From NCBI GenBank assembly GCA_051294905.1, contig CM119371.1, positions 16,742,001 to 16,806,000 of the forward strand: a stretch of 64,000 bases of DNA. Direction: 5' to 3'. Positions 25,387 to 52,054 of this stretch are shown piece after piece. The translations under genes were made by a program, and so were the position numbers. Under the pieces are notes generated by a model. It worked only from the letters and a program-made list of their open reading frames with translations. It was not told the DNA's origin and searched no databases. Position 1 is the first letter of the stretch. Each line of letters begins with the position of its first letter. This stretch comes from Botryllus schlosseri (lineage: Eukaryota).

Positions 25387-25394
25387 ATATAGGT

Positions 25395-26200: not shown

Positions 26201-26449
26201 GTAATGATTACATGATGCACGATGGCTTGAATACAAAAGACAATACGAATCACCGCCCACTGCGTATCGACATTTGAAAGCGTGGTTCTATGTACCACTT
26301 TTGAGAATGAGAGCCCATTGTATACTGTAGACATGGTCTGAAGTTTTCTGAACAGAATGATTAGCTAAATATCCTTATGTTTCTGAGAGCTAAAACAATA
26401 CACGGTCACAGAATCGAAGAGTAGTTATATAGATCGCTCGTGACCTGGC

Positions 26450-29800: not shown

Positions 29801-30859
29801 CCGAGTTGTATGCACAGTTTGATATTTTTTGTTATTTGGTAATTGCTGAATATACTACTTCGAAATACTCCCTTGAACGTAATTTCCATCATCGTAATAA
29901 TCGAAGTACATTTGTGTCGAATTCGTAACAGTCGACTATGACATGATAAATTTTTGACAAGTTATGCTTGGAAGATTGGTTGTATATTACGAAAAATAAT
30001 TACCGCTCATATTCATACTGTTATCCATTGTTCGGTATTTTCAAACGAGTAAAATTTATTACTTGAGTTACTCCGCTTAATGCAAATGTAAACACAACCG
30101 TCTTTCAACATCGCAAAGACATCGATACAAAGTATACAATCAAACGCAACAAGTTTTACTTTTGTAGGTTGTGTAGGGTTATCCTGCATAACTCATTTCT
30201 TACCAAAGCCATATGAAATATATTCATGTTACACGAAAATATTCACTCATGCTACAAACCTGTACAATGATTGGTGGTGCTTTCAAACTGTTTCGATACC
30301 TCAAGAACTTTATTGTCTGAATGGTTGTTCATGTATCATAATAATCAAGTAATTCAACACAGAACTAGTATTAACAGAAACACCAAAGTTGTTTACACAA
30401 AAGTTTGTATGTGTACAGTATACGAATACCATGTGTAAGTCCAGCACAATTGTGTACGAGTTTAGTTAACACAATTTACGACACCGAGGTCGCGTCATCT
30501 TTCGTAAGACAACAAACCAAGGCTTCAGGATATGTCCATGTCATAGCAATGAATCAGCTACTCCAACAACAGAGTGCATATGTTTTCTAGTTACGGTGCT
30601 TACATCTTACACACAAATCAATCTACTATGCTAACGAAAAGTGGTGAGTCATCATATGGTTATCCTCACTAGTAAAACATACTATCATACAAAATGGTCG
30701 TTATAGTTTGCACACCAACGGTACATCGTACAAGTAACAAGTCTCGAGCATCCAGTTATTCAAAAAACGTGAAAGTATTTCTACACCAAGTCGTTATGTT
30801 GACGAAAGCGTATATTGTAATACCAGTAGTTAAGTAGATCGCTCGCGAACGGCTAATTT

Positions 30860-31335
30860 TTGCATGGGGCTCTTATGGCGGGGTGGCGATTCGTATTGAA
30901 AACCGGGGGTGGCGACTCGTACTTTCAGACCCCCCTCGGGGCCGCGATTCGTAATGGGTTCTTATGGACGCGGTCGTGATTCGTACTTTTGGGTATAGGC
31001 TGTGGTGGTGACTCGTATTGAAAACTCAGGGTCGTGATTCGTACTTTTGGGTATAGGCAGCGGCGGTGATGTGCCTGAAAACTCGTGGTCGTGACTCGCC
31101 TTTTTTGCTATGGGCTGCGGCGGTGATGCGCCATGAAAACTCGTGTTGGTGATGGTACCCTTTCAGACCCCCTATCGCTCGTGATGTGCCAATGGTTCTT
31201 ATGGGATCTCTGGTGATGTGCCATTGTTTCTTATGGTATCTCTGGTGATGTGTCATGTATTCTTACGGGATCTGTCGTGATTCGCCATGTGTTCTTATGG
31301 GTGCGGTCGTGATTCGCACTTTCAACCATCTCTCG
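30860..31335. repeat. E2 left subterminal array (mirror copy at about 59020-59495)
   Basis: Modules with GTGATTCGTAC or GGTGATGTGCC boxes separated by CTTATGG, GGTATAGGC and GAAAACTC linkers. Confidence 0.85.
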
Positions 31336-32539
31336 CGTGGTGTTGAATAGTCACCAACAATATCCGCACAAACGGAAACGTGGCTTGTAAGAGGATTTAC
31401 GCAGTGCGTGCGACAGACGGCGATTCGAATATCAACAATAGTCGCGTTCGCAAACTAACACTTCAAAAAGATGTGAAATATTTGTAAAATCCTACGATCG
31501 CTCACAAGATACCACTTCCGGCATATCGATCTATCACTCAATACACAACCGAAGTTGAATTGTAATTGAATGCGTAAATTTATCAACTCGACATCAAAAT
31601 TCGAAAACAACAACTTGATGCTTTATGTTCTCACTCTAATTTCATGATAAGTGTAATAAGTGCCGAATAACAGATACATCACCGGCGAGACTTGAATACC
31701 AACAAATTGTCACTTATTTCTATTCTAGCCGTAATCCTTTGTGAAGTTAACGCTTATTCAAAAAGGTGTGAAATAGTTTGCAAAACCCCGCGACCACTGA
31801 CAAGATAATGTCTCGGACATACCCATCTTTCACGACTTGGTGTCATAGCCATACCGATCGCTCACGCGGTGAAATTTTAGTAATCAGTTTGTCACAGAAC
31901 TAGATTTCACTGGTAAGATTTAATAAATACCGACTATCAGAACCATCAGTGTGGGTAACTTGAATAGCAACAAATTGTCACTTATTTCCGACGGGAAGTT
32001 CACTAAACCGCAGTACAATGCGGGATTTTGAAAAACAGATGTTCGCGAGCGCGTTTTGATATGTGTGACCCACTAACTACGTCCGCTTTGGAGACGCGAT
32101 CTGTTGTGAGGATTTCGAACGCGCACTATCGTATCGATTATTCCACTAATCCAGTCAGCACTATTACATTCAGGAGTATTCGGTATTCAGCAGCGACACG
32201 AAAAACGATCAACAAATAACTGCGTTCACAAACCAACACTTCAAAAAATGTGTGAAATAGTTTGCAAAACCCCGCGATCGCTGACAAGATAATGTCTCGG
32301 GCATAACCATTTTAGTGACTTGGTGTTAAAGACATACCGATCGCTCACAAGGTAATATTTCGGTAATTAGTTTGTCACAGAGCCGTCGCAGACGGTGATT
32401 CGAAAACCAACAATTTGACACTTTCTGGTGCTTGCTATATGTTTTGACACTTCGGAACGTGGTTGACTTTAGTTGTATGATAAGAATCATGTGAATATAC
32501 AAGTAATGTGAGTAGTATAGTCGATCGCTCGCGAACGGC

Positions 32540-33360
32540 CATTGTGGCTTATGGGTGCGGCGGTGAGGTGCCGCGAAAACTCGTGGTGGTGATGGCACCC
32601 TTTTGACCCCCCCTCTCGGCGGTGAGGTGCCATGTGTTCTTATGGATGCGGTGATGATGGCACCCTTTCGGGTATAGGCTGCGGCGGTGAGGTGCCGTGA
32701 AAACTCGTGGTGGTGATGGCACCCTTTTACACCCCCTCTCGGCGGTGAGGTGCCATGTGCTCTTATGGATGCGGTGATGATGGCACCCTTTCGGGTATAG
32801 GCTGCGGCGGTGATGTGCCTGAAAACTCGTGTTGGTGACTCGCCTTTTTTGCTATAGGCGGTGGCGGTGATGTGCCATGTATTCTTACGGGATCTGTGGT
32901 GATTCGCCATGTGTTCTTATGGATGCGGTCGTGATTCGCACTTTCAGGCATCTCTCGCGCGGTGTTGAATATGTACGAGTCACCAACAATAACCGCACAA
33001 ACGGAAACGTGGCTTGCAAGAGGATTAAGCAGTGCGACCTATATTTCGAATGACCTGCGCGCTGAATTGTTTCACAGCCAACCGCGGTGGTCGTGACTCG
33101 CCTTTTTTACTATAGGTGGTGACGGTGATTCGCCTGTCGTGTATTCTTACGGGGATCTGTGGTGACTCGCCATGTGTTCTTATGGGTGCGGTCGCATGCG
33201 GCTATTGCGTCTTATGGCGGGGGTGGTGAGCGGCTATTGATGCTAACACGAAACCCGGGGTGGCGAGCGGCACATATTTCTTATGGCGGCGGGTCTTATT
33301 TCTTATGGATGCGGTCGTGATTCGTACTTTCGGTATAGACTGCGGGCGGCATGTCGTACT
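32540..33360. repeat. E1 left subterminal array (mirror copy at about 46317-47137)
   Basis: About 123-bp higher-order repeat (GAAAACTCGTG at 32575, 32699 and 32821) with GCGGTGA(G/T)GTGCC boxes. A second, looser block lies at 33085-33360. Confidence 0.85.
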
Positions 33361-36300
33361 TTCAGCAAAAAAAGGTGTGAAATAGTTTGCCAAGTCTAGG
33401 AATCACTTGCAAGGTAATATTTTGGTATTTAGTTTACCACAGAGCCGGCGTAGACGGCGATTCGAATATCAACAATAACAACGCTCACGAATTAACACTT
33501 CAAATAGCTGTGAAATAGTTTGCAAAACCCCGCGATCGCTGACAAGATAATGTCTCGGTCATAACCATCTTTCACGACTTGATGTCATAACCATACCAAT
33601 CGCTCACAAGGTAATATTTTGATAGTTTGTCACAGAACTTGATATCGCTGGTAAGATTTAACAAGTAACGAATAACAGACCGCCAGTGTCGGTAACTTGA
33701 ATAGCGACAAATTGTCACTTATTTCCGCTCTAACCCTAATCCTTTGTGAAGTGAACGCTTATTCAAAAGGGTGTGATATAATTTTAAAATCCTACGACAC
33801 TCACAGGGTAATGCTTCAGACAAAGCGATCCCTCATGCCCGCTCACAAGGTAATATTTCCGTAATTAGTTTGTCACAGAGTCGTCGCAGACGGTGATTCG
33901 TAAACCAACAATTTGACACTTTCTGGTATGGTCGCTATATGTTTTTGACACTTTGTCCGTGTTTGACTTTAGTTGTATGATAAGAACCATGCGAATATTC
34001 AAGCAATGTATCAATTGAATGAAATGAAACTTACTACACAGCTCAAGTTGATTCGTATTTGAATGTGTTGATCCGGTACAATTCTAATTAATTTGAGAAA
34101 TCTTTTTAACGTGATCTTCTGATTCGACCGTAACCTGAATATTACTGACGCCGACTTTCAGTCACATTGAATTATTCACACATTCCACGCCGCTGTTTTA
34201 ACAGTTATAGAATCAATACCAACTATCTCTAACCCGATAATATTCAATCATTTTGGTAATTTGCCAACTTTAAATCCATTCGCGGATGTACTAAAGGTAA
34301 ATCCAAATAATCCAAAATGAAATATTTGGACTTTGACATAGTCTGAATTGAAATAGATTGACAAACATGACTACCAACTTTCACGCAGTCCCATTTCGAT
34401 ATTATATGCACATTGATTTGAAACAAGTAATGCAACATTGCAACTCTATTCGCGATCCCGCTTTCCGTTTGTCAAAGAGATATTTTAACATCTTACCATA
34501 CTCAAAAGAATTCTTCACAACATTAACAATTGTTAAAAATCTAGTTTTCACTTACTTGATTATATCACTACAACCCACAAACTTGAATTAATTCATCCTG
34601 GCTGTATTCGTATGATCGGTCTTTTTTATTCGATTGTAAAGGTCGTTACTATTCTGAAGACAAAGTATTTACTAATCGGTACATATACGATTTTACTTGG
34701 ACATATTATATTTTGAGTATACGAGATTTGAATGTCCGAACAATAACTGAGAATTAATTTATCACAATTAAATCCGTATATTACAGCGTAAAAGATATTG
34801 GGGGGTCAGCAACTCTGTACGGTCGTAGTTACAACCACATTAACTAATCTACCCAGGCAACTCGTCATGATCATTCCTGAAATCAACACAAACACGACCA
34901 CTGACTTGAGTTAACCGCGAAACAGCATCAAGTTTTAAATCCGCTTGCAGCTGACGGATTATTCGAATGCATCGATGGAGAATATTATTGAACTCGTCGG
35001 TATTGTTACTTCAACAAATTACACCGACTGCGAAAGTTAATATCGAATGGTAAGACTTGATCACATATTTGTTGATCACAGACACGACAAAAAAACATTA
35101 CCGAGATTTTATAAACTAGTCATATTACTCTACACATCTATCAATATCAAAATGCGAGTCATCCAATTTATCTACTAAAGTAACATTGCACTTTCGGATT
35201 CGGTATAGTCATACAAATTGTATTAAATCCAAAATCAAAACAAAAGGATTTTATTTTTTAGTTTATTGAAATCAAATCATTCGTCTTCGACTTGTGCTTT
35301 TCTAGATTGCACGCAACAATTCGTTACGAACGAGCTGTAACCAAAGTTAAGAATTCTTTGTGTCCACAGATATAGAAGATGAATATAGCTAACACAATCG
35401 CGAATCGATGTTTCAGAGTATTTCACGGATGTAATAAACTTGTTAGTGTCCCCTATCTAAAAAGTATGCATGCGTTCGATTTCCATACCGACTGTTGCGA
35501 TGTTTAGGATTCGTTTACAATGACCAAGAGTGAGGATTTAACATCAAAGTCGTTACTGGAGGTATTCACAACAGAGAATCGAAACATTACACAGTGTGAA
35601 AATATATCTTTGATATCAAAGCACTATCCCAAGTACACGATTAATACTCAACTCCGTTCACACTTTCTATAGAACGTGCTAAATGTAAAATATCACGAGG
35701 TTGCACTCTAAGACTTTGATCATTACAAAAGTAAATTGAATATGTCTGCTCGACGCATTCAATTCAACTAGAAATGTCTAGTGCACAACAATCGTAATAT
35801 TAAGGAAGTACTTGCTACACTGTAATTCACTTAACGTGTTTTGCATTGTTGTTCATTTGTAGTATTGATTGTTTTTGAACCCCCAAATAATAATTCCCGA
35901 CATGAAACCAAACCGCTGAAAGTCGTTACCAACACAAAGAAACACTTTGTATGATGTTTGCCAAATGTACCCTATGGTTAGGTGTACCAGAATTATTTGT
36001 GTAACACATACACCGACAATGTAATCGAAAATTTTTCCGTTGTCATTCGCTAAAGTAAATGTCATCACAATACTCTGTCACTAAAGATCTTACTTGTATC
36101 TGATTGAATCACCGATAATTAACTCGCTAAATCAAACCATAAGGAAATTTCACTCACTCATCAGATATGAAACAGCGTCGCTTAATCGGTGTAGATCGTT
36201 TTTCTAAATGCAAATCATACCGGACCAACAGAAAAACAATTTTCACTCACCTTGTAATGAAACCAAGTGTAGTGGACCTTCGTTCAATATTTTGTTTGTG

Positions 36301-37899
36301 TCAAATACTTTGCGATAAACACACTGGAGTGGTCGAGCTTTACATCAGCAGACTGTAATCTGTAAATCAAGCTTACATCCGACTTGTAACTGTATCGTTT
36401 ACCTAACCGAGTTGTATGCACAGTTTGATATTTTTTGTTATTTGGTAATTGCTGAATATACTACTTCGAAATACTCCCTTGAACGTAATTTCCATCATCG
36501 TAATAATCGAAGTACATTTGTGTCGAATTCGTAACAGCCGACTATGACATGATAAATTTTTGACAAGTTATGCTTGGAAGATTGGTTGTATATCACGAAA
36601 AATAATTACCGCTCATATTCATACTGTTATCCATTGTTCGGTATTTTCAAACGAGTAAAATTTATTACTTGAGTTACTCCGCTTAATGCAAATGTAAACA
36701 CAACCGTCTTTCAACATCACAAAGACATCGATACAAAGTATACAATCAAACGCAACAAGTTTTACTTTTGTAGGTTGTGTATGGTTATCCTGCATAACTC
36801 ATTTCTTACCAAAGCCATATGAAATATATTCATGTTACACGAAAATATTCACTCATGCTACAAACCTGTACAATGATTGGTGTTGCTTTCAAACTGTTTC
36901 GATACCTCAAGAACTTTATTGTCTGAATGGTTGTTCATGTATCATAATAATCAAGTAATTCAACACAGAACTAGTATTAACAGAAACATCAGAGTTGTTT
37001 ACACAAAAGTTTGTATGTGTACAGTATACGAATACCATGTGTAAGTCCAGCACAATTGTGGTATCCAATACGAGTTTAGTTAACACAATTTACGACACCG
37101 AGGTCGCGTCATCTTTCGTAAGACAACAAACCAAGGCTTCAGGATATGTCCATGTCATAGCAATGAATCAGCTACTCGAACAACAGAGTGCATATGTTTT
37201 CTAGTTACGGTGCTTACATCTTACACACAAATCAATCTACTTTGCTAACGAAAAGTGGTGAATCATCATATGGTTATCCTCACTAGTAAAACATACTATC
37301 ATACAAAATGGTCGTTATAGTTTGCACACTAACGGTACATCGTACAAGTAACAAGTCTCGAGCATCCGGTTATTCAAAAAACGTGAAAGTATTTCTACAC
37401 CAAGTCGTTATGTTGACGAAAGCGTATATTGTAATACCATGATCGATTTGCATTCGTTGGTCACAAACTGTCACTACTCTAAATAATTATTTTTCACTCA
37501 AACACAAAAGCATACTTGTCGCCAATCGTTTTCATCAAGTACGAGTTCAAGAAACTTACTACGACATGAATTTTTATTTTTATGTTGTGTAAATAGGTAA
37601 TAATTATTTCAAGTAACACTATATCAACATCATCGAGTTGTGCTAATAGATTTACATGCGATCTTGTGGTTTTCATCGGGACATACAGCACGAACTAACT
37701 GTAGACTCCTCTCTGTTGTACAGCTACTCGGTAATCGAAATGCATTAACATGTAAACAACGATCTTGTTTCGTCACACCAAAAATATGTTCACTGTCGCG
37801 ATACTCCGCACAAGACGTGCATAGTCTTTTCACACTCGTAATAGTATACCAACGGCAAGCGATAACGTTTAACAAGACCAACGACACTGAACCCACGAC

Positions 37900-38680
37900 G
37901 TTTACCTATGTAAAATTACCACTTTCACTTGCCAGTCCATCGTTTACCTGACTAAACATATTATTTTCCTTTGGAGATCTGATGTTTACCCAGAGTAAGA
38001 AACCTTTTTCACTTGGAAATCTATTTTTTCCTTGGCTAACAAACCTTTTTTCACTTGTAAATATGTTTTTTCCTTGGCTAACAAACCTTTTTTCACTTGG
38101 AAATCTATTTTTTCTCTGGTTAACAAACCTTTTTCCCCGGGTAACAAACCTTTTTCCCTGAGCAACAAGCCATTTTCACTTGGTGGTCCGTCGTTTACCT
38201 GAGTAAAAATATCATTTTCCTTTGGGGATCTGGCGTTTACCCGGTGTAACAATACATTTTCGCTTGGAAAAATACTTTTACCTAGAGTAACTAATCATTT
38301 TCTCCTGGGTAACAATCCCTTTTCGTCTGGAAACTATCATTTAACTGAGTACCAATACCGTTTTCACTTGGAAATACATTTTTTCCCTGGGTAACAAACC
38401 TTTTTCCCTGAGCAACAAACCATTTTCACTTGCAAATATATTTTTTCCTGGGTAACAAACCTTTTTCACTTGGAAATATATTTTTTCCCTGGGTAACAAA
38501 CCTTTTTCGCTTGGAAATATATTTTTTCCTTGAGCAACAAACCATTTTCACTTGGCGGGTCGTCGTTTACCTGACTAAAAATATCATTTTCCTTTGGAGA
38601 TCTGGCGTTTACCCAGTGTAACAATACATTTTCTCTTGGTCATCTAGCTTTTCCTAGAGTAACAAAACCATTTTCATTTT
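37900..38680. repeat. About 41-bp satellite in the E1 left arm (mirror at about 40997-41777)
   Basis: Unit similar to CCTTTTTCACTTGGAAATATATTTTTTCTCTGGGTAACAAA. Confidence 0.9.
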
Positions 38681-39397
38681 GAAATCTGACAAACACACCT
38701 GACAATTTGATAATTTTGTATATTGTTACAACGAACAGTGACGGAAATATACACAGACTACCGGTTTCAGAGTACACCCCATCGGTCGTATCACGTCAAT
38801 ATCATCGGTTAACCACATACAATATACTCTTGTACACCGAAATGCACGCTTTGGAAAATTGGACAATAGGCTGCGATAGTTCTGTGATGTCCGGGTTCGT
38901 GCTTTAGATTTTCCAGAGTCAAAATGTCTGAATAAAACACCTCCTCGATGACGGTTGGTATGTGGATAACGGTGTTCGGAAAACGGATGGATTTATGTCG
39001 CCCATCGCGATAACAATTCCTGGTCGAGTTTTCCTCCGGCATGTTTGCTATATTGTGTCTTTATTGGTCAATGTATGTCTCGACATTCAGTTTGAAATCG
39101 GAAATGATAAAGTATGTAACCGGATCCGGATATCAACTCTGAATCGATAAACCAATGAACAATATTCAAAGTAAACATGTCACACCCTGTGTTTCCACGA
39201 AAAATACCATCCAGACATACGTCGCGCTTGTTTGCCCACATCAGTATACGCGCAAATGGAGGTGTGTGACATTGCATGCAATGTGTTGGTATACAGACAT
39301 CGATCCACAGACATTATCATAGCCGGTAGTTTTGATGTAGATCGAATGTCACTCGATAACAATACCAATAAGCCACATTGCAATGACTCTGAGTCCG

Positions 39398-40279
39398 TCT
39401 GAGCATGACATACAGACACACAAACATGGAACCGTAACATGGGTTATTCGCACGACGGTGAAAGTGAACTGCACAGAATATACCAATAGAGCGTTCACAG
39501 ACATTCACCGTGTACAATCATATAACCAGATTTTTGCTGGATATGTACGAAACCGATAAATCGATACATTTCTGTTCCTTCGACGTCAATAATACAAGCG
39601 TCGTTCCAATGCATCGCTCGAATGTAAGGTTCTTCAGGTGTAAAACCTATGTCAAATAACACCAAAGTGTGCCTTCTGTGTTTTATTATTTCCACCGATG
39701 CATCTTGCCTGTGTCGTAACACTATGGTGCAGGGACTCGAAAAACGGTACTTTGTAAAACGGATTGACATGACCAACTGAAACGACGTCGATAGCCTTGT
39801 GGTGATGATAGTTTCAAAATGTTACCGATCTCTTGTGGCGATGACCGTTTCGAAATGGCACCGGGCGAAATGGACCCTTACGATGATGTGTTTTTTGATT
39901 GCGTGTGAAATCACGAGGTAGTGTTCTATTGTGGTGTACGATTGCAGTCTTCACATAGACACACCTTATTGGATCACAGTATCAGTCCGAGATTTGCACG
40001 ATATTTATCTGGAGTCGTTATGTGGGAGTAGCGACATCCATGCATCGTGACTGAAAGACTGATCGCAATCATTTCGAGCACCGTACTTCGATAGTTCACA
40101 TTGGTAAAACGCTGCAGCAGAAAACTTCGGTGTCGACAACACGACAGATATCGATCGATGTATCCAATTGGTCTGGGTGATCTGTCCGGAGATAGGGTCA
40201 TGACTATCTTGCAATGTAACAACACGATAACACCATCGAGTAAATCAGCGAACGGTGTCGAAATATCGATGTAATAGCG
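39398..40279 (-). other. E1 unique spacer, 882 bp, with decayed ORF-like sequence
   Basis: Homologous to the E2 and E3 spacers. ORF fragments 39495-39776 and 39974-40294 on the minus strand. Confidence 0.85.
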
Positions 40280-43200
40280 CGGACTCAGAGTCATTGCAAT
40301 GTGGCTTATTGGTATTGTTATCGAGTGACATTCGATCTACATCAAAACTACCGGCTATGATAATGTCTGTGGATCGATGTCTGTATACCAACACATTGCA
40401 TGCAATGTCACACACCTCCATTTGCGCGTATACTGATGTGGGCAAACAAGCGCGACGTATGTCTGGATGGTATTTTTCGTGGAAACACAGGGTGTGACAT
40501 GTTTACTTTGAATATTGTTCATTGGTTTATCGATTCAGAGTTGATATCCGGATCCGGTTACATACTTTATCATTTCCGATTTCAAACTGAATGTCGAGAC
40601 ATACATTGACCAATAAAGACACAATATAGCAAACATGCCGGAGGAAAACTCGACCAGGAATTGTTATCGCGATGGGCGACATAAATCCATCCGTTTTCCG
40701 AACACCGTTATCCACATACCAACCGTCATCGAGGAGGTGTTTTATTCAGACATTTTGACTCTGGAAAATCTAAAGCACGAACCCGGACATCACAGAACTA
40801 TCGCAGCCTATTGTCCAATTTTCCAAAGCGTGCATTTCGGTGTACAAGAGTATATTGTATGTGGTTAACCGATGATATTGACGTGATACGACCGATGGGG
40901 TGTACTCTGAAACCGGTAGTCTGTGTATATTTCCGTCACTGTTCGTTGTAACAATATACAAAATTATCAAATTGTCAGGTGTGTTTGTCAGATTTCAAAA
41001 TGAAAATGGTTTTGTTACTCTAGGAAAAGCTAGATGACCAAGAGAAAATGTATTGTTACACTGGGTAAACGCCAGATCTCCAAAGGAAAATGATATTTTT
41101 AGTCAGGTAAACGACGACCCGCCAAGTGAAAATGGTTTGTTGCTCAAGGAAAAAATATATTTCCAAGCGAAAAAGGTTTGTTACCCAGGGAAAAAATATA
41201 TTTCCAAGTGAAAAAGGTTTGTTACCCAGGAAAAAATATATTTGCAAGTGAAAATGGTTTGTTGCTCAGGGAAAAAGGTTTGTTACCCAGGGAAAAAATG
41301 TATTTCCAAGTGAAAACGGTATTGGTACTCAGTTAAATGATAGTTTCCAGACGAAAAGGGATTGTTACCCAGGAGAAAATGATTAGTTACTCTAGGTAAA
41401 AGTATTTTTCCAAGCGAAAATGTATTGTTACACCGGGTAAACGCCAGATCCCCAAAGGAAAATGATATTTTTACTCAGGTAAACGACGGACCACCAAGTG
41501 AAAATGGCTTGTTGCTCAGGGAAAAAGGTTTGTTACCCGGGGAAAAAGGTTTGTTAACCAGAGAAAAAATAGATTTCCAAGTGAAAAAAGGTTTGTTAGC
41601 CAAGGAAAAAACATATTTACAAGTGAAAAAAGGTTTGTTAGCCAAGGAAAAAATAGATTTCCAAGTGAAAAAGGTTTCTTACTCTGGGTAAACATCAGAT
41701 CTCCAAAGGAAAATAATATGTTTAGTCAGGTAAACGATGGACTGGCAAGTGAAAGTGGTAATTTTACATAGGTAAACGTCGTGGGTTCAGTGTCGTTGGT
41801 CTTGTTAAACGTTATCGCTTGCCGTTGGTATACTATTACGAGTGTGAAAAGACTATGCACGTCTTGTGCGGAGTATCGCGACAGTGAACATATTTTTGGT
41901 GTGACGAAACAAGATCGTTGTTTACATGTTAATGCATTTCGATTACCGAGTAGCTGTACAACAGAGAGGAGTCTACAGTTAGTTCGTGCTGTATGTCCCG
42001 ATGAAAACCACAAGATCGCATGTAAATCTATTAGCACAACTCGATGATGTTGATATAGTGTTACTTGAAATAATTATTACCTATTTACACAACATAAAAA
42101 TAAAAATTCATGTCGTAGTAAGTTTCTTGAACTCGTACTTGATGAAAACGATTGGCGACAAGTATGCTTTTGTGTTTGAGTGAAAAATAATTATTTAGAG
42201 TAGTGACAGTTTGTGACCAACGAATGCAAATCGATCATGGTATTACAATATACGCTTTCGTCAACATAACGACTTGGTGTAGAAATACTTTCACGTTTTT
42301 TGAATAACCGGATGCTCGAGACTTGTTACTTGTACGATGTACCGTTAGTGTGCAAACTATAACGACCATTTTGTATGATAGTATGTTTTACTAGTGAGGA
42401 TAACCATATGATGATTCACCACTTTTCGTTAGCAAAGTAGATTGATTTGTGTGTAAGATGTAAGCACCGTAACTAGAAAACATATGCACTCTGTTGTTCG
42501 AGTAGCTGATTCATTGCTATGACATGGACATATCCTGAAGCCTTGGTTTGTTGTCTTACGAAAGATGACGCGACCTCGGTGTCGTAAATTGTGTTAACTA
42601 AACTCGTATTGGATACCACAATTGTGCTGGACTTACACATGGTATTCGTATACTATACACATACAAACTTTTGTGTAAACAACTCTGATGTTTCTGTTAA
42701 TACTAGTTCTGTGTTGAATTACTTGATTATTATGATACATGAACAACCATTCAGACAATAAAGTTCTTGAGGTATCGAAACAGTTTGAAAGCAACACCAA
42801 TCATTGTACAGGTTTGTAGCATGAGTGAATATTTTCGTGTAACATGAATATATTTCATATGGCTTTGGTAAGAAATGAGTTATGCAGGATAACCATACAC
42901 AACCTACAAAAGTAAAACTTGTTGCGTTTGATTGTATACTTTGTATCGATGTCTTTGTGATGTTGAAAGACGGTTGTGTTTACATTTGCATTAAGCGGAG
43001 TAACTCAAGTAATAAATTTTACTCGTTTGAAAATACCGAACAATGGATAACAGTATGAATATGAGCGGTAATTATTTTTCGTGATATACAACCAATCTTC
43101 CAAGCATAACTTGTCAAAAATTTATCATGTCATAGTCGGCTGTTACGAATTCGACACAAATGTACTTCGATTATTACGATGATGGAAATTACGTTCAAGG

Positions 43201-46200
43201 GAGTATTTCGAAGTAGTATATTCAGCAATTACCAAATAACAAAAAATATCAAACTGTGCATACAACTCGGTTAGGTAAACGATACAGTTACAAGTCGGAT
43301 GTAAGCTTGATTTACAGATTACAGTCTGCTGATGTAAAGCTCGACCACTCCAGTGTGTTTATCGCAAAGTATTTGACACAAACAAAATATTGAACGAAGG
43401 TCCACTACACTTGGTTTCATTACAAGGTGAGTGAAAATTGTTTTTCTGTTGGTCCGGTATGATTTGCATTTAGAAAAACGATCTACACCGATTAAGCGAC
43501 GCTGTTTCATATCTGATGAGTGAGTGAAATTTCCTTATGGTTTGATTTAGCGAGTTAATTATCGGTGATTCAATCAGATACAAGTAAGATCTTTAGTGAC
43601 AGAGTATTGTGATGACATTTACTTTAGCGAATGACAACGGAAAAATTTTCGATTACATTGTCGGTGTATGTGTTACACAAATAATTCTGGTACACCTAAC
43701 CATAGGGTACATTTGGCAAACATCATACAAAGTGTTTCTTTGTGTTGGTAACGACTTTCAGCGGTTTGGTTTCATGTCGGGAATTATTATTTGGGGGTTC
43801 AAAAACAATCAATACTACAAATGAACAACAATGCAAAACACGTTAAGTGAATTACAGTGTAGCAAGTACTTCCTTAATATTACGATTGTTGTGCACTAGA
43901 CATTTCTAGTTGAATTGAATGCGTCGAGCAGACATATTCAATTTACTTTTGTAATGATCAAAGTCTTAGAGTGCAACCTCGTGATATTTTACATTTAGCA
44001 CGTTCTATAGAAAGTGTGAACGGAGTTGAGTATTAATCGTGTACTTGGGATAGTGCTTTGATATCAAAGATATATTTTCACACTGTGTAATGTTTCGATT
44101 CTCTGTTGTGAATACCTCCAGTAACGACTTTGATGTTAAATCCTCACTCTTGGTCATTGTAAACGAATCCTAAACATCGCAACAGTCGGTATGGAAATCG
44201 AACGCATGCATACTTTTTAGATAGGGGACACTAACAAGTTTATTACATCCGTGAAATACTCTGAAACATCGATTCGCGATTGTGTTAGCTATATTCATCT
44301 TCTATATCTGTGGACACAAAGAATTCTTAACTTTGGTTACAGCTCGTTCGTAACGAATTGTTGCGTGCAATCTAGAAAAGCACAAGTCGAAGACGAATGA
44401 TTTGATTTCAATAAACTAAAAAATAAAATCCTTTTGTTTTGATTTTGGATTTAATACAATTTGTATGACTATACCGAATCCGAAAGTGCAATGTTACTTT
44501 AGTAGAAAAATTGGATGACTCGCATTTTGATATTGATAGATGTGTAGAGTAATATGACTAGTTTATAAAATCTCGGTAATGTTTTTTTGTCGTGTCTGTG
44601 ATCAACAAATATGTGATCAAGTCTTACCATTCGATATTAACTTTCGCAGTCGGTGTAATTTGTTGAAGTAACAATACCGACGAGTTCAATAATATTCTCC
44701 ATCGATGCATTCGAATAATCCGTCAGCTGCAAGCGGATTTAAAACTTGATGCTGTTTCGCGGTTAACTCAAGTCAGTGGTCGTGTTTGTGTTGATTTCAG
44801 GAATGATCATGACGAGTTGCCTGGGTAGATTAGTTAATGTGGTTGTAACTACGACCGTACAGAGTTGCTGACCCCCCAATATCTTTTACGCTGTAATATA
44901 CGGATTTAATTGTGATAAATTAATTCTCAGTTATTGTTCGGACATTCAAATCTCGTATACTCAAAATATAATATGTCCAAGTAAAATCGTATATGTACCG
45001 ATTAGTAAATACTTTGTCTTCAGAATAGTAACGACCTTTACAATCGAATAAAAAAGACCGATCATACGAATACAGCCAGGATGAATTAATTCAAGTTTGT
45101 GGGTTGTAGTGATATAATCAAGTAAGTGAAAACTAGATTTTTAACAATTGTTAATGTTGTGAAGAATTCTTTTGAGTATGGTAAGATGTTAAAATATCTC
45201 TTTGACAAACGGAAAGCGGGATCGCGAATAGAGTTGCAATGTTGCATTACTTGTTTCAAATCAATGTGCATATAATATCGAAATGGGACTGCGTGAAAGT
45301 TGGTAGTCATGTTTGTCAATCTATTTCAATTCAGACTATGTCAAAGTCCAAATATTTCATTTTGGATTATTTGGATTTACCTTTAGTACATCCGCGAATG
45401 GATTTAAAGTTGGCAAATTACCAAAATGATTGAATATTATCGGGTTAGAGATAGTTGGTATTGATTCTATAACTGTTAAAACAGCGGCGTGGAATGTGTG
45501 AATAATTCAATGTGACTGAAAGTCGGCGTCAGTAATATTCAGGTTACGGTCGAATCAGAAGATCACGTTAAAAAGATTTCTCAAATTAATTAGAATTGTA
45601 CCGGATCAACACATTCAAATACGAATCAACTTGAGCTGTGTAGTAAGTTTCATTTCATTCAATTGATACATTGCTTGAATATTCACATGGTTCTTATCAT
45701 ACAACTAAAGTCAAACACGGACAAAGTGTCAAAAACATATAGCGACCATACCAGAAAGTGTCAAATTGTTGGTTTACGAATCACCGTCTGCGACGACTCT
45801 GTGACAAACTAATTACGGAAATATTACCTTGTGAGCGGGCATGAGGGATCGCTTTGTCTGAAGCATTACCCTGTGAGTGTCGTAGGATTTTAAAATTATA
45901 TCACACCCTTTTGAATAAGCGTTCACTTCACAAAGGATTAGGGTTAGAGCGGAAATAAGTGACAATTTGTCGCTATTCAAGTTACCGACACTGGCGGTCT
46001 GTTATTCGTTACTTGTTAAATCTTACCAGCGATATCAAGTTCTGTGACAAACTATCAAAATATTACCTTGTGAGCGATTGGTATGGTTATGACATCAAGT
46101 CGTGAAAGATGGTTATGACCGAGACATTATCTTGTCAGCGATCGCGGGGTTTTGCAAACTATTTCACAGCTATTTGAAGTGTTAATTCGTGAGCGTTGTT

Positions 46201-49200
46201 ATTGTTGATATTCGAATCGCCGTCTACGCCGGCTCTGTGGTAAACTAAATACCAAAATATTACCTTGCAAGTGATTCCTAGACTTGGCAAACTATTTCAC
46301 ACCTTTTTTTGCTGAAAGTACGACATGCCGCCCGCAGTCTATACCGAAAGTACGAATCACGACCGCATCCATAAGAAATAAGACCCGCCGCCATAAGAAA
46401 TATGTGCCGCTCGCCACCCCGGGTTTCGTGTTAGCATCAATAGCCGCTCACCACCCCCGCCATAAGACGCAATAGCCGCATGCGACCGCACCCATAAGAA
46501 CACATGGCGAGTCACCACAGATCCCCGTAAGAATACACGACAGGCGAATCACCGTCACCACCTATAGTAAAAAAGGCGAGTCACGACCACCGCGGTTGGC
46601 TGTGAAACAATTCAGCGCGCAGGTCATTCGAAATATAGGTCGCACTGCTTAATCCTCTTGCAAGCCACGTTTCCGTTTGTGCGGTTATTGTTGGTGACTC
46701 GTACATATTCAACACCGCGCGAGAGATGCCTGAAAGTGCGAATCACGACCGCATCCATAAGAACACATGGCGAATCACCACAGATCCCGTAAGAATACAT
46801 GGCACATCACCGCCACCGCCTATAGCAAAAAAGGCGAGTCACCAACACGAGTTTTCAGGCACATCACCGCCGCAGCCTATACCCGAAAGGGTGCCATCAT
46901 CACCGCATCCATAAGAGCACATGGCACCTCACCGCCGAGAGGGGGTGTAAAAGGGTGCCATCACCACCACGAGTTTTCACGGCACCTCACCGCCGCAGCC
47001 TATACCCGAAAGGGTGCCATCATCACCGCATCCATAAGAACACATGGCACCTCACCGCCGAGAGGGGGGGTCAAAAGGGTGCCATCACCACCACGAGTTT
47101 TCGCGGCACCTCACCGCCGCACCCATAAGCCACAATGGCCGTTCGCGAGCGATCGACTATACTACTAATGTGTCAATTTGACAACTTGAAATGAAACTTA
47201 CTACACAAACCAAGTTGATTCGTATCTGAATGGGTTAATTCGGTACAATTCTAATTATTTTGAGAAATCTTTTGATTCGACCATAACCTGAATATTACTG
47301 ACGCCGACTTTCAGCCGCATCGAATTATTCGCACATTCTGCACCACTGTTTTCACACTTATAGAATCAATACCAACTATAACTCTACAAGAATCAAGAAT
47401 CACAAGTATGTTCATTACACAGTTATTGTCTTTATTAACTTGAAATCAAACTCTTAACAAAAACACACATCTTATCACTCGTCAACTCTATCATGAAAAT
47501 CCTCGAGTCCTTATCATCAAAAATGTTATAGCGCGGCGTCGGAACCCATTCGTGGGATGTACTAAAAATAAATCCAGATAATCCAAAATGAAATATTTGG
47601 ACTTTGACATAGTGTGAATTGAAATAGGATTGACAAACATGACTACCAACTTTGATCCAGCCACATTTCAAGATTATACTTTGAAACAAGTAATGTTACA
47701 TTACAACTCTATTCACGATCCTGCTTTCCGTTTATCAAATAGAGTTTCAGTAAATACTATCGCGATATTTTAATGTGTTACTACACACAATAGAATCAAT
47801 CAATGAAATAGCACCTGTTGTAAATATTTCTAACTTGACAACCACTTGTGCGTACCGCGATCGACTTGCGACGCGATGAGTTAAATCGGAATTTTTCAAT
47901 CTATTTGTCGAAACCTTGAACAAACTATCAGGTTATTTTTTGTTGTAATCGAGTGAACGGAAATAGTATTACGTCTCAACATTTTAGCATCTTCCCATGA
48001 ACAAAAGAGTAAAATACAAAAAACCTTGTCAATTCAATCCGTTTGTAACTTACCCAACCAACTCAACAGTATCCTTACGAAAAGTAGACAAGACTACGCG
48101 AGTAATCACTACAATCCAAAATCCATAGCAAGTTCGGTTGTATTCATATCCCTACGACGCGTCTTTTGTTTTTCAACTGTAAAAGTCGTTACTATTTTGC
48201 AAGACAAAGTAATTACTACTTGATATATTTTATAAACCAAAGTAAATACTACTCGGTGTGTGGTTTGAGATTAACATATTACATTTGAGTATACCGGATT
48301 TGAATGCCTGACCAACGTAGTTGAGAATTCATTTCTTACAATCAAACGCCGGTTTTACATTGAAAGGTATCATACTGTAAACATAAGGATTGACACATTG
48401 ATTTGATATATGAGATTTTGTAATGCTCGACCACGACTTGATTATTAAAGTATTCACGATAATTAGACCCGATGTTGTGGTAAAGGTTATTAGAAAATAT
48501 CACTTTTGGCATCGAGTACCAGTCGAAGTGGGTGAACAATAACACCGAAAATGATAAATGCGTTTCGTGCTACTATTGATACAAGCTCATTTCTATCAGG
48601 TGAAATAAACGCCATCACAAAACTCAAAGCATGCAAAGGTCTTGATTGATATGAATTTCGATTTGTGTCTTATGATTTTAGAAATATTATGATTCGTTAA
48701 ACCAAAGTCGTATGTCCGATTATTAATTGATTGGAAACTTGATCACGTACCTCGATCATTACAGAAGATTATAACCCCATTGTCCGACAATCTTTTACAA
48801 AAGGATCGAAACCAAGTAACCCAAAGTCGTTGCCGTCGCATAAACAATTTGTACGACGTTTGATAATTGTACCCTATACGTTGGTGTACTAGAGATATTT
48901 GTAAAACACACTCTGGTAAAGAAATCGAAAAGATATCCTACACCTAAATCTGATAAAACCATTTTGCACTTTTTGTTCGTCAGTAGTATCCATTTTAATT
49001 TTCCCATTTCCTCTCGTCAAAGTAGATGTAATCATAGTCACTAAAGAACTTACTTGGATGTGTTTGAATTCTAGACATAGTTATGATTTACTCAACGCAA
49101 GACCCAAGAACAACCGTAGTTAACAACCGTGCACACATATCCAAAATATCGCACACTCCGCTATTCCTAAAGTACAAACACCCGATACAAAATATCACTT

Positions 49201-50449
49201 GTTGCGGCATCATCTTCACAATATCACCATTTTGTTTGTGTCAATTAGTTACTTTGTATGTTATCCCACAACTCTTACAAAAGTACGAAGGATATTAACA
49301 TCGCACTAAGTAATTAACTTTACTCGATATTCTCACATTACGAAACTAAAGAATGGTTGGTTAGACTCTACAAACTGTTTCGATATCACAAGACCTTTAT
49401 TGTCTGAATGGGTGTTCATGTATCTTAATAATCAAATAGTTCAACACAGAACTAGTACTAACAGAAACATCAGAGTTGTTTACACAAAAGTTTGTATGTG
49501 TACAGTATGCGAATACCATGTGTAAGTCCAGCACAATTGCAGTATCCATTCGAGTTTAGTCAACACAAATTTATTACAACGGAGCCACGTAAACTTTCGT
49601 GAAAGAAAAGCATACTCACTTCCAGAGGGTTATGTCAACACCATAGCAGTTCCCCAACAACAAAGTACATATGTTTCTAGCCACGGTTCTTACATCTTTC
49701 ACATAGATCAATCTACTTTGCTAACGAAAAGTGCTGAGTCATCACATGATCGCTCTCACAACAAAACAGCTAGTAGATATTATCATTCAAAATATTCCTA
49801 ACCCTTTACACACCAGTGACAAATCATACAACGAATATGCTTTGTGGGTCGAATTGTTGTTCAGTGTCAAGTCTACCTGTTGAAACGTACATTAAACAGC
49901 GCAATCCAATTAAAACCACGAATCTATTTTCATTTCGTCACATACAGAAAAATAAATTTTCTTTCTCCAACACATACTTGTAACCAATCGCTTTCATTAA
50001 ACACACAACACCATAAAAGTATTTACTTTCTACAACATAGACATTCCGATGTAGTCAAGAAATATTTTTATTAATCAAAATCATCGATTTCTGTTCACGG
50101 CGTTAGTGTGTGCATGTCATACCCGTGGGCCCCGTATTAAAATGGACACGACACGACTGACTGTAAGGAGATAGAAGTCTATCACATCGATTTACATGTG
50201 GTCTTCGCTACGGTTTCAAAAAACGAATCATCTCTTTTGCATTGATCTAGACCGAGCAAGTTAGTTAATGGCCATGATTGTGTTTGTCATATGCGAATGA
50301 TAGGGTTACTGTCAAATCTACATACAACAATCTTCTGACGATCATAATAGCAATTTCATTTTCCGCCCCTTCATAATTGTACAACTCGGTAACTACGTTT
50401 AACAAGACCAATCACACTACCGGCGTTGAACACAAGATACCTATCCAAG

Positions 50450-51315
50450 TAAAAATATCATTCTGGTTTGGACAACTGACGTTTACCTGTGTAAAATTAT
50501 CATTTTCACTTGGAGGTCCACCGTTACCTAACTAAAATACCATTGTCCTTTGGAGATTTATCGTTTACCCAGTGTAACAATCCCCTTTTCACTTGGAAAT
50601 CTATTTTTGGCCTGAATAACAAACCCCTTTTCACTTGGAAATCTATTTTTGCCCTGGATAACAAACCTTTTTCATTTGGAAATATATTTTTTCTCTTGGT
50701 AACAAACCTTTTCCACTTGGAAATATATTTTTTCTCTTGGTAATAAGCCTTTTTCACTTGGAAATATATTTTTTCTCTGAGTAACAAACCTTTTTCACTT
50801 GGAAATATATTTTTTCTCTGAGTAACAAACCTTTTTCACTTGGAAATATATTTTTTCTCTTGGTAATAAACCTTTTTCACTTGGGAATATATAATTTCTC
50901 TGGTTAACAAACCTTTTTCACTTGGAAATATATTTTTTCTCTGGGTAACAAACCTTTTTCACTTGGAAATATATTTTTTCTCTGGGTAACAAACCTTTTT
51001 CACTTGGAAATATATTTTTTCCGCGGGTAACAAACCTTTTTCCCTGAGCAACAAACCTTTTTCACTTGCAAATATATTTTATCCTGGGTAACAAACCTTT
51101 TTCACTTGGAAATATATTTTTTTCGCTGGGTAACAAATCTTTTTCGCTTGGAAATATATTTTTCCCTGGGTTACAAACCTTTTTCACTTGGTGATCCGTC
51201 GTTTACCTGAGTAAAAATATCATTTTCCTTTGGGGATCTGGCGTTTACCCAGTGTAACAATACATTTTCTCTTGGTCATCTAGCTTTTCCTAGAGTAACA
51301 AAACCATTTTCATTT
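50450..51315. repeat. About 41-bp satellite in the E2 left arm (mirror at about 53702-54567)
   Basis: Same unit; this is the longest and most homogeneous array of the three elements. Confidence 0.9.
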
Positions 51316-52054
51316 TGAAATCTGACAACCACACCGACAATTTGATATTTTTGTATTTTCTTACAGCGAACAGCGACAAAATATACACCAACAACGACTC
51401 CGATACATTTGTCTAATCAAATATTCACTTGTGTTGGTGCATCCCATCAAAATCGTCGGTTACCCACATGCAATGCGCTCTTGTACACAGAAATGCATGT
51501 TCTGGAAAATTGGACAATAGACTTCGATAGTTCTGTGATGTCCGGGTTCGTGCTTTGGATTTTCCAGAGTCAAAATGTCTGAATAAAACACCTCCTTGAC
51601 GATGGTTGGTATGTGGATAACGGTGTTCGGAAAACGGTTGGATTTATGTCACCCATCGCGATAACAATTCCAGGTCGAGTTTTCCCCCGCATGTTTACTA
51701 TATTGTGTCTTTATTGGTCAATGCATGTCTCGACATTCAGTTTGAAATCGGAAACCCTGATAAAGTATGTAACCGGATCCGGATATCAACTCTGAATCGA
51801 TAAACCAATGAACAATATTCAAAGTAAACATGTTACACCCTGTGTTTCCACGAAAAAATACCATCCAGACATACGTCGCGCTTGTTTGCCCACATCAGTA
51901 TACGCGTAAATGGAGGTGTGTGACATTGCATGCAATGTGTTGGTATACAAACATCGATCCACAGACATTATCATAGCCGGTAATTTTGATGCAGATCGAA
52001 TGTCATCACACCCGATAACAATACCAATAAGCCACATTGCAATGACTCTGAGTC

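Follow-up and report, generated by a model that had tools for sequence, protein, structure and literature searches.

The 64,000-nt window of Botryllus schlosseri DNA that we analyzed (contig CM119371.1, positions 16,742,001 to 16,806,000) holds three nested, gene-less foldback copies, E1, E2 and E3, each of which is one giant hairpin of roughly 14 kb. Each copy is 13–14.7 kb long, is bounded by 5'-AGTAGT...ACTACT-3' and consists of inverted arms of 6.1–6.9 kb flanking a loop of ~0.9 kb. An Rfam search of the window gave 0 matches and a tRNA scan likewise gave 0. The features of the locus are:

23283–26419, no strand: host-side E3 flank lying within the palindrome; its partner is C1:16810258-16813392, past the right end of the window
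26420–30824, forward strand: outer part of the E3 left arm, with the left terminus AGTAGTTATATAGATCGCTCGTGAC at 26420
30819–30824: first copy of the E2-made target duplication AATACC, at the end of the outer part of the E3 left arm
30825–32510, forward strand: outer segment of the E2 left arm, with terminus AGTAGTTAAGTAGATCGCTCGCGAACGGC and 6 of the 8 E2 arm mismatches
32505–32510: first copy of the E1-made target duplication AATGTG, at the end of the E2 outer segment
32511–47166: the whole of E1
32511–39397, forward strand: E1 left arm, 6887 nt, with terminus AGTAGTATAGTCGATCGCTCGCGAACGGCC
32556–32939: repeats of 123, 65 and 32 bp in the E1 left arm
about 37964–38688: 41–42-bp tandem array in the E1 left arm
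39398–40279, no strand: E1 loop, 882 nt, unique within the element
40280–47166, reverse strand: E1 right arm, terminating in ACTACT
47167–52054, forward strand: second copy of AATGTG (47167–47172), then the inner segment of the E2 left arm
52055–52962: E2 loop
52963–59530: E2 right arm, in which the empty site for E1 (57845–57850) is uninterrupted
59531–59536: second copy of AATACC
after E2, up to 61235: inner part of the E3 left arm
61236–62153: E3 loop
62154–64000, reverse strand: E3 right arm, truncated where the window ends and running on to C1:16810257 (extended coordinate 68257)
near 63854–63859: empty site for E2 in the E3 right arm

Perfect 6-bp target duplications surround E1 (AATGTG) and E2 (AATACC), and for both insertions the partner arm or homologous arms still have the intact single-copy empty site. 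The duplications and empty sites together prove the nesting: E3 inserted first, then E2, then E1. As the first-pass annotation had noticed, these later insertions were not copied to the other arm. The E3 loop is inverted relative to the loops of E1 and E2; a reading of this as loop flip-flop was dropped, because with identical arms the inversion reflects only the orientation of insertion.

We compared each left arm, ungapped, with the reverse complement of its right arm in the assembly sequence. The E1 arms (32511–39397 vs 40280–47166) differ at exactly 3 positions in 6887 nt (33992/45685, 35170/44507 and 37022/42655; 0.044%), so that an earlier spot check reporting about 3 differences in 6.9 kb, although non-exhaustive by intent, proved exhaustive. 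E2 (30825–32510 plus 47167–52054 vs 52963–59530) is more mismatched than E1, as had been claimed, with 8 substitutions in 6568 aligned nt (0.122%) at 31028, 31268, 31272, 31276, 31282, 31568 and a doublet at 50893–50894 that falls inside a 41-bp tandem array. Three extra E2 "mismatches" at 47157–47165 were discarded as the repeat over-extended into the end of E1. The visible part of E3 (59530–61235/62154–63859) does contain the 3 mismatches in 1706 nt reported at first (60356, 60412 and 60547), and this excess sits in or beside the 41–42-bp tandem array. The complete E3, read past the window, has 4 mismatches in 6102 nt (0.066%), which is below E2 and close to E1, and the full E3 palindrome including its flank has 6 substitutions and 2 indels in 9240 nt. 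No indels were found between the arms of E1, E2 or E3 proper. Between elements the arms are 73–96% alike in patches and differ by large indels, and these differences are mirrored in both arms, in agreement with the first description.

The trio's mismatches comprise 5 transitions and 10 transversions, the ratio that random errors would give, and several of them lie within tandem arrays or crowd into a single 15-bp cluster. Such a transversion-rich set is what one might expect of an assembly artefact, in which the assembler, or a polishing step that mixed inverted repeats or haplotypes, would have created the palindromes, made their arms nearly identical or introduced the few mismatches; reads cross-mapped while polishing could equally remove genuine differences. 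We nevertheless consider an artefact very improbable. Clean target duplications and empty sites occur at every nested junction and at 10 of 10 other loci, the same architecture is found on many chromosomes, and the family-wide spectrum is more transition-rich than random error (transitions to transversions 16:14 in young and 33:30 in old copies, both above the 1:2 of random errors). Furthermore, the two copies of the E3 flank described below differ by 2 substitutions and 2 indels, unlike a graph walk over the same reads. In four runs of Logan unitigs (60–150 nt, depths in the thousands), which are uninformative for so repetitive a family, no arm-mismatch site was listed as variable.

The E2 cluster at 31268–31282, when polarized, has three changes that are derived on the right arm and one on the left; its origin by conversion from the nested E1 was rejected after comparison with five other elements. 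Mismatches of E2 are concentrated distal to the nested insert (6/1686 distal, 2/4882 proximal), a hand-worked excess with a binomial P of about 0.005 by substitutions and about 0.05 by events, and E3 shows the opposite trend (1/4399 distal, 3/1700 proximal). With E2 and E3 running opposite ways, mismatch position relative to the nested insert was rejected as a pattern.

The first-pass annotation had read the arms as a built-in LTR-like clock whose mismatch density follows the nesting order, and had predicted E1 ≤ E2 ≤ E3 after arm alignment. The counts of 3/6887, 8/6568 and 4/6102 (or 6/9240) do not bear this out; with E3 taken whole the rank is E1 < E3 < E2. The apparent excess in E3 was set aside, as only 1.7 kb had been visible and this stretch contained the 41–42-bp tandem array. 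Regarding a refutation through the divergence order, the order does deviate from the nesting, yet the reversal of E3 below E2 is not significant (P = 0.18). Heterogeneity of divergence across E1, E2 and E3 is not significant by chi-square (p = 0.24 with E3 as 4/6102, 0.23 with 6/9240), and its p rises to 0.85 when the trio is counted by events. The trio's 15 mismatches thus carry no significant information on the order of insertion.

The E3 palindrome continues 3137 bp past its termini into flanking DNA and thereby spans 48 kb in the assembly. Positions 23283–30817 pair with extended coordinates 71392–63860 over 7536 nt with 3 substitutions and 2 indels, and as a whole the flank occurs only twice in the genome, as the two E3 flanks. 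The borders read ATCGAAG–E3–CTTCGAT and are inverted, not direct; no 6-bp target duplication was found in the E3 flanks because these flanks are themselves an inverted duplication. An unrelated high-copy repeat lies within the flank at 23781–24940. That the palindrome extends into host DNA without a target duplication shows that E3 was re-made in the chromosome: E3 and 3.1 kb of flank were duplicated in inverted form before E2 arrived. An older copy, C7_24.10M, contains a conversion-like tract of 1280 bp that is free of mismatches among 51 substitutions (P = 0.0009). The chromosome can therefore re-make or patch arms, and the E3 flank palindrome and the C7_24.10M tract contradict the earlier claim that arms are not equalised there. 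Both also speak for concerted evolution in place, by which arms would be equalised in the chromosome through gene conversion, hairpin or cruciform processing or fold-back repair. Under that alternative transposition would copy both arms faithfully, and divergence would record the time since the last conversion and not since insertion.

The wider family bears on this question. A pattern built on the termini matched the genome 56 times in forward and 52 times in reverse orientation, against 0 and 0 for a control, the hits forming at least 38 terminus pairs, and a query with the E1 loop gave 755 candidates; among the matches listed, 41 in number, identity was 87–100% and both strands were represented. 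Our 13-element sample consists of E1, E2, E3 and 10 fetched copies that were hand-picked for pairs about 13–14.3 kb apart with good termini, and it is not a random sample. All 13 start with AGTAGT and end with ACTACT, and 12 of them (E1, E2 and 10/10 fetched copies, E3 being the exception) have perfect direct 6-bp target duplications. Arm-arm substitutions, counted per roughly 6.1–6.9 kb, are 0/6650, 1/6439, 1/6311, 2, 2, 3, 3, 3, 4, 6, 8, 13 and about 50; C11_4.55M was counted over 5446 nt, with its outer roughly 1.6 kb, where one arm is without 1189 nt, excluded. Arm-arm divergence in the 13 copies is 0–0.76% while the nearest other sampled copy is at least 5% diverged. From the HSP-summed distances we used the between-element values, the within-element ones being polluted by tandem-array matches. 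In eight close relatives of E1, non-majority states are mirrored 67 times and unmirrored 16 times, and 9 of the 13 inner-arm differences between E1 and its closest sampled relative are mirrored. Fast re-homogenisation of the arms is thus real, and the about 50 substitutions of C7_24.10M show that arms also drift in place. Polarisation of mismatches against other copies succeeded at only 32 of 93 sites.

Of the proposal that arms are homogenised at transposition and then drift, the arm likeness arising faster than lineages diverge and the subsequent drift are both upheld. The timing is plausible: a presumed identity of the repeats at insertion is consistent with 0/6650 in the youngest copy and at most 0.12% in 11 of 13 copies, and all counts also fit frequent in-place arm conversion. 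Concerted evolution in place predicts the mirrored-to-unmirrored ratios of 67:16 and 9:4 equally well, and it would suit the finding that the oldest palindrome of the trio is not the most diverged. Against it, the 14-kb inserts in one arm were neither copied across nor lost (although heterologies of such size convert poorly), palindromy past the element ends occurs in only 1 of 13 copies, and the copies at 0.76% and 0.20% have mismatches distributed along the arm, so that conversion is not fast everywhere. We regard it as a somewhat unlikely account of the family. What is supported of the LTR-like clock is the fast re-homogenisation followed by drift; its nesting order and its freedom from in-place exchange are not. 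Since such a clock needs arms that exchange nothing after insertion, and the E3 flank palindrome and the C7_24.10M tract record exchange, arm divergence is at best a noisy, resettable clock.

The termini connect the foldbacks with Maverick/Polinton elements. In the excerpts of PMC8097293 (Barreat and Katzourakis 2021) the vertebrate Maverick signature is given as 5'-(AGT)2//(ACT)2-3' with perfect 6-bp target duplications, and the end repeats are tied to jump-back in protein-primed replication; the end motif and duplication length of the foldbacks match this signature exactly. We reached the ORF-bearing Mavericks of the genome through a PF04665 family search; genome searches with PF03175 and PF00770 gave no match but their controls were equally silent, hence these are uninformative. 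One resident Maverick (C2:14480542-14497716; 17,175 bp) has the same end motif, the target duplication TACGTA and 245-bp terminal inverted repeats (TIRs); its frames include an rve+chromo integrase, an ATPase of the A32 type and one of 1309 aa. Atlas clusters nearest to the 1309-aa frame are DNA_pol_B_2 at 0.97, and as this frame has no PDB or Pfam match the Atlas lead alone names it a polymerase. A Maverick adenain-like frame of 170 aa matches the outer arms of 3 of the 13 foldbacks (E 5e-39 to 5e-30, 48–54% identity), where the protease relic appears in each arm as a mirror image and, as in the resident Maverick, is directed towards the terminus. The relic is absent from E1, E2 and E3, save for an 87-nt nucleotide remnant in E2. 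In a tblastn search of 41 Maverick frames against the 13 foldbacks only the protease relic was found, plus a weak 25-aa match (E 0.003), and Pfam searches of 78 frames of at least 45 aa from the E1 arm and loop gave no family at cut-off and no PolB or rve integrase. Encoding neither polymerase nor integrase, the foldbacks are not Mavericks proper and at most a dependent derivative.

Among the four resident Maverick lineages sampled (from 354 polymerase candidates, 35 of them scored), no autonomous Maverick has matching TIRs and no BLAST similarity was found; the ends share with the foldbacks only AGTAGT and an A/T-rich stretch, at most the first 8 nt AGTAGTAT. This scant similarity, the missing polymerase and integrase, and internally repetitive arms that resemble classical foldback elements would also suit a cut-and-paste foldback of another DNA-transposon superfamily, its AGTAGT ends and 6-bp duplications being coincidental and its arms equalised by post-excision gap repair. 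Such an origin seems unlikely to us, given that end motif and duplication length together equal the published Maverick signature and that three copies retain a relic with homology to a gene of a resident Maverick. The 6 bp seen here also differ from the duplications made by Drosophila FB (9 bp) and Galileo/P (7–8 bp).

Taken together, we believe that the locus probably consists of three nested copies of a multi-copy, non-autonomous, Maverick/Polinton-derived foldback with a resettable arm clock. A Maverick-type integrase would insert the element and generate the 6-bp target duplication, and copying would probably fall to the polymerase of resident Mavericks, a protein-primed, strand-displacing enzyme, in keeping with the AGTAGT "jump-back" ends. 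Maverick-like ends and target duplications make a protein-primed panhandle or hairpin model of replication a fair one, and to that extent the panhandle or racket templating of one arm from the other, proposed in the first-pass annotation, can stand. When a genome that is palindromic over nearly its whole length replicates in this way, its displaced single strand may snap back into a long hairpin, in whose stem arm differences would be erased by mismatch correction or else by copy-back synthesis. Each new insertion would then begin with near-identical arms that drift afterwards.

Within this Maverick-derived reading we tentatively entertain a more specific possibility, namely that an animal Maverick virus gave rise to defective genomes of the copy-back (snap-back) kind and that the elements are copies of these in the chromosomes. 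In this view a single end of the viral genome, formerly with a protease gene, would have been duplicated into a hairpin-shaped replicon that retained only the ends for protein-primed replication and integration, at near packaging size. As a satellite of resident Mavericks this replicon may have multiplied to hundreds of copies. The hairpin formed by its displaced strand would re-equalise the arms at every round of replication. If so, arm divergence would be a true mark of time since insertion that only a rare event in the chromosome, like the one at E3, would reset, and the family would provide a case from animals of a defective, satellite-like Maverick-virus derivative at hundreds of copies.

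To our knowledge, the replication of Maverick/Polinton elements, virus-like transposons reportedly described by Kapitonov and Jurka in 2006, has never been observed directly. A family that is wholly inverted repeat and has Maverick ends is a natural reporter of this mechanism, and if its arms are equalised at each copying this would support an adenovirus-like step in which the displaced strand forms a panhandle or hairpin. E3 shows that a 14-kb foldback palindrome can be the starting point for a larger inverted duplication of host DNA, and its lesson for dating by arm divergence is that palindromy past the ends and conversion tracts need to be checked. No gene-less, Maverick-ended foldbacks with multi-kb arms are described in the literature searched, mostly outside subscription journals and Repbase (excerpts of PMC8097293, PMC6431247 and 10.1101/2025.02.07.637071).

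Like Mavericks, the foldbacks have (AGT)2...(ACT)2 ends, perfect 6-bp target duplications and terminal inverted repeats, their length of 13–14.7 kb is comparable to the 17.2 kb of the resident element and the 16.9 ± 1.7 kb of vertebrate ones (excerpts of PMC8097293), and some copies retain the Maverick-type protease relic. Unlike Mavericks, they are without a polymerase, integrase, capsid or ATPase gene, their arms cannot be aligned to the sampled resident Maverick TIRs, and their repeats of 6.1–6.9 kb make up ~90% or more of the element, as opposed to 46–1447 bp in vertebrates (same excerpts of PMC8097293). Butterfly Polintons, in the excerpts of 10.1101/2025.02.07.637071, have gene-bearing TIRs of about 2 kb that duplicate the hexon and adenain genes, and thus similarly show Polinton ends enlarged to kilobase-scale inverted repeats; those elements are still coding and autonomous-looking, whereas here the repeat fills the element and coding capacity is lost. 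As in LTR dating, two repeats are presumed identical at insertion and then diverge independently. In contrast to LTR dating, that identity is here a presumption, post-insertion exchange is directly seen (E3 flank, C7_24.10M), and young copies have just 0–8 differences per arm pair. Adenoviruses replicate by protein priming and strand displacement; the displaced strand anneals to itself at its ends, one ITR being restored from the other, and their defective genomes have one genome end duplicated in inverted form. Among the papers listed by a literature search, none dealt with defective genomes with inverted end duplications. The likeness to adenoviral panhandle repair is one of inferred mechanism only, the foldbacks being known here from chromosomal copies. 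Drosophila FB, Galileo and sea-urchin TU elements have long, internally repetitive, modular inverted arms with few or no genes, and their arms are more alike within one copy than between copies. The foldbacks described here share all of these traits with the classical ones and differ from them in their AGTAGT ends, in their 6-bp duplication (12 of the 12 copies that have one) as against 7–9 bp, and in arms that are several-fold longer.

Arms were located by an inverted-repeat scan and then compared base by base, left against right, within each of three nested foldback elements, E1 (innermost), E2 and E3 (outermost). Extended coordinates carry the window numbering past the right edge, where E3 is cut and was read on.

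32511-39397 and 40280-47166: arms of E1, 6887 nt, with a loop of 882 nt
30825-59530: E2, left arm split by E1 into 30825-32510 and 47167-52054, loop 52055-52962
59530-61235 versus 62154-63859: part of E3 visible in the window
26420 and extended coordinate 68257: full termini of E3

E1 is bracketed by a direct AATGTG duplication (32505-32510 and 47167-47172), and an uninterrupted empty site with a single AATGTG is present in the right arm of E2 and in the homologous arm of E3. E2 likewise lies between copies of AATACC (30819-30824 and 59531-59536), with its empty site seen in the right arm of E3 and at the homologous position of E1. All elements start with AGTAGT(A/T)(T/A) and finish with ACTACT. 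The nesting is real transposition, and the target-site duplications (TSDs) together with the empty sites give the order of arrival as E3, then E2, then E1.

The first-pass annotation had read the arms as a clock in which mismatch density follows the nesting order. Its spot counts were accurate: E1 has exactly three mismatches in 6887 nt (33992/45685, 35170/44507, 37022/42655), E2 has more, with eight substitutions over 6568 aligned nt including a cluster (31028, 31268, 31272, 31276, 31282, 31568 and the doublet 50893-4), and the visible ∼1.7 kb of E3 has three (60356, 60412, 60547). The counts do not rank in the predicted order. Over its complete arms E3 carries 4 substitutions in 6102 aligned nt, and divergence ranks E1 (0.044%) < E3 (0.066%) < E2 (0.122%), all counts resting on an assembly whose polishing, applied across identical arms, could have introduced differences as well as removed them. 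Homogeneity tests across the trio gave p=0.24, p=0.23 when the whole E3 palindrome was used (6/9240) and p=0.85 when the E2 cluster and doublet were each taken as single events, while the reversal E3<E2 has P=0.18; the nesting order is therefore neither supported nor significantly contradicted. The E3 excess noted earlier (3/1706 versus 3/6887, P=0.097) arose because the sole visible stretch contains a 41-42-bp tandem array, which holds two of the three mismatches and stops just short of the third. The E2 doublet also falls within this array. In the 15-bp E2 cluster three derived changes are in the right arm and one is in the left, and the cluster does not amount to four separate ticks of a clock.

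Arm differences in E2 are denser in the segment past the E1 insertion (6/1686 in 30825-32510 versus 2/4882 in 47167-52054); the distribution in E3 is the opposite and no rule emerges. At 31586, 31679, 35746, 36620 and 37262, in E2 and E1, contigs of three runs, taken from other studies under the same organism label, all carry another letter. Each is an allele or comes from a near-identical copy at another place; unitigs cannot separate the two.

Searches of the 495.5-Mb genome of the animal show that the elements belong to a family. For the E1 loop, 41 matches are listed out of 755 candidates, and a 29-nt terminus pattern has 56 + 52 matches versus 0 + 0 for the reversed control. Neighbouring +/- termini are paired in 38 cases among the 100 places listed, and 19 of these 38 pairs are spaced 13.1-14.7 kb apart (E2 counted by net length). 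Ten copies whose termini were good and lay roughly 13-14.3 kb apart were selected, hence not a random sample, and all 10 have a perfect 6-bp TSD and the same architecture. In total 13 full copies, 7 loop regions and 4 Maverick lineages were analysed.

Arm-arm substitutions in the 13 full copies (names outside E1-E3 give chromosome and position; aligned nt after the slash)
C1_33.05M: 0/6650
C8_27.90M: 1/6439
C9_18.04M: 1/6311
C14_17.92M: 2
C11_6.23M: 2
C14_22.71M: 3
C11_4.55M: 3/5446, outer part dropped
E1: 3
E3: 4
C9_21.17M: 6
E2: 8
C2_29.10M: 13
C7_24.10M: about 50

In the C11_4.55M copy (C11:4550481-4563606) one arm is short of ∼1.19 kb of outer-arm sequence that the other arm keeps. The copy nevertheless has its two termini and a perfect TSD; a large piece was deleted from this one arm after insertion.

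The body of the elements is palindromic and gene-less. Apart from short chance frames, the window ORF scan found no ORF of ≥100 aa wholly inside one element; 78 stop-to-stop frames of the E1 arm and loop matched no Pfam family at its cut-off, and Rfam and tRNA searches returned 0 families and 0 tRNA. Close to the left side of the palindrome, a 684-aa open frame (17651-19705, plus strand; RVT_1 E 2e-35) is a non-LTR retrotransposon. Three abutting open frames of 253, 391 and 132 aa (5761-8068, plus strand), with no Pfam match at E≤0.001, are possibly one interrupted transposase-like gene.

Left and right arms differ by no indels within E1, E2 or E3, whereas between elements arms are alignable only in patches of 73-96% identity separated by large indels. 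Differences between elements are thus mirrored in both arms, as first proposed. Each of the 13 copies is 5-15% distant from its nearest other sampled copy over at least 3 kb of alignable arm. Among eight close E1 relatives (loops 98.3-100% identical), 1187 ungapped inner-arm columns contain 67 mirrored and 16 unmirrored non-majority states; of the 13 inner-arm differences that separate E1 from its closest sampled relative, 9 are present in both arms, and the loops of the two differ at 4/882 sites. Low arm-arm divergence, distant copies and mirrored states together indicate that arms are re-equalised rapidly and frequently relative to lineage splitting, and drift afterwards. Transitions and transversions have the same spectrum in old (33:30) and young (16:14) copies, with a transition excess over random error (p=0.002 and 0.03, respectively). 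This family-wide spectrum speaks for real mutations, though the E1-E3 trio alone gives 5:10.

The annotation had also held that arms are not continuously homogenised in the chromosome. This has to be revised, as the E3 palindrome passes its termini: 23283-30817 pairs with 71392-63860 (extended) over 7536 nt with 3 substitutions, one 1-bp and one 3-bp indel, so that 3137 bp of flank per side are mutual inverted copies. The junctions are inverted (ATCGAAG|E3|CTTCGAT); there is therefore no direct duplication of whatever length and no simple insertion into a pre-existing palindrome. Taken whole, the flank occurs in the genome at these two places only. Within it lies an unrelated ∼1.16-kb repeat (23781-24940), for which a first look at the genome gave 12,597 candidates, those listed being 83-90% identical. 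The flank palindrome is most simply read as the product of an inverted duplication in place that copied one arm and continued 3.1 kb into the flank. Possible routes would be fold-back priming, a template switch at the hairpin-prone repeat, or a hairpin-capped break that was then replicated. Because E2 sits in one arm only, this chromosomal re-duplication is older than the arrival of E2, and E3 arm divergence dates it rather than the E3 insertion. Additionally, C7_24.10M, the most diverged copy (51 substitutions in 6683 nt), has a 1280-bp stretch with no substitution (P=0.0009 under uniform scatter), resembling a conversion tract. Arms do become homogenised in the chromosome.

Observed divergence and mirroring fit equalisation at copying and frequent arm-to-arm conversion in the chromosome equally well, because neutral theory predicts the same rate of mirrored substitution under either. 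The E3 flank palindrome and the C7_24.10M tract are the kind of chromosomal events that conversion in place calls for, but some copies have drifted to 0.2-0.76%, and nested inserts were neither copied, as the annotation had stated, nor purged, with their empty sites intact in the partner arm. These drifted copies and uncopied inserts, with Maverick-type ends, clean TSDs and near-zero divergence in most copies, favour copying as the main equalising step.

A search for an A32-type packaging ATPase led to a resident Maverick (C2:14480542-14497716) of 17,175 bp with 245-bp TIRs, AGTAGT...ACTACT ends and the TSD TACGTA. Its open frames include the A32-type ATPase and an rve+chromo integrase (L031:2731-3738 of a separate sequence piece, minus strand; rve E 2e-13; C-terminal Chromo E 1e-9), whose chromodomain could guide integration toward silenced repeats and might explain entry into already silenced copies, hence nesting such as E3>E2>E1. 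A 1309-aa frame, with no match in Pfam or PDB, has DNA_pol_B_2 clusters as nearest Atlas neighbours (0.97), and we take this polymerase identity as a lead only; the genome has 354 candidate matches to this frame, of which 35 were scored, and these fall into lineages 99, 92, 67 and 61% identical to it. Near the left end, Bcl-2-family (L032:4356-4877, plus strand; PF00452, E 1e-20) and ubiquitin-conjugating enzyme (L032:5367-5849, plus strand; PF00179, E 2e-48) frames look like host-derived cargo of the type used by DNA viruses against apoptosis. A 134-bp stretch immediately flanking the right end of the Maverick (C2:14497714-14497846) is a 96% inverted copy of C2:14480041-14480174, which lies 368-501 bp outside the left end; the Maverick may sit within another inverted-repeat element.

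A 170-aa Maverick frame has Peptidase_C5 clusters of Preplasmiviricota as Atlas neighbours (0.97-0.98) and a GSHWV...DSFG...CGxHA pattern, which we take to be adenain-like. Three of the 13 foldbacks have matches to it in their outer arms (E 5e-39 to 5e-30, 48-54% identity), mirrored in both arms and oriented to the terminus as in the Maverick; part of the arm in some copies probably descends from a Maverick gene. E1-E3 do not carry this relic, except that in E2 a remnant of 87 nt is seen at the nucleotide level. Polymerase and integrase genes are missing from the foldbacks, and their ends share AGTAGT and an A/T-rich stretch, nothing more, with the TIRs of the 4 sampled Maverick lineages. From shared ends, TSD length and relic on one side and missing enzymes and unmatched TIRs on the other, we file them as dependent, gene-less Maverick-type derivatives, not Mavericks.

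We propose that resident Mavericks would supply integrase and protein-primed polymerase, and that the displaced strand, almost fully self-complementary, would snap back into a hairpin, where mismatch correction or synthesis of one arm from the other would take place; every new insertion would therefore begin with identical arms. Adenoviral panhandle repair is a parallel for restoring one arm from the other. About half of the paired copies are close to Maverick length, a hint that packaging sets a limit. According to Barreat and Katzourakis 2021 (PMC8097293), Maverick length is held near 17 kb by constraint, the repeats at the ends allow jump-back when replication is protein-primed, and vertebrate Mavericks have 5'-(AGT)2//(ACT)2-3' end motifs with perfect 6-bp target duplications. 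The foldback end motif and TSD length are identical to this published signature.
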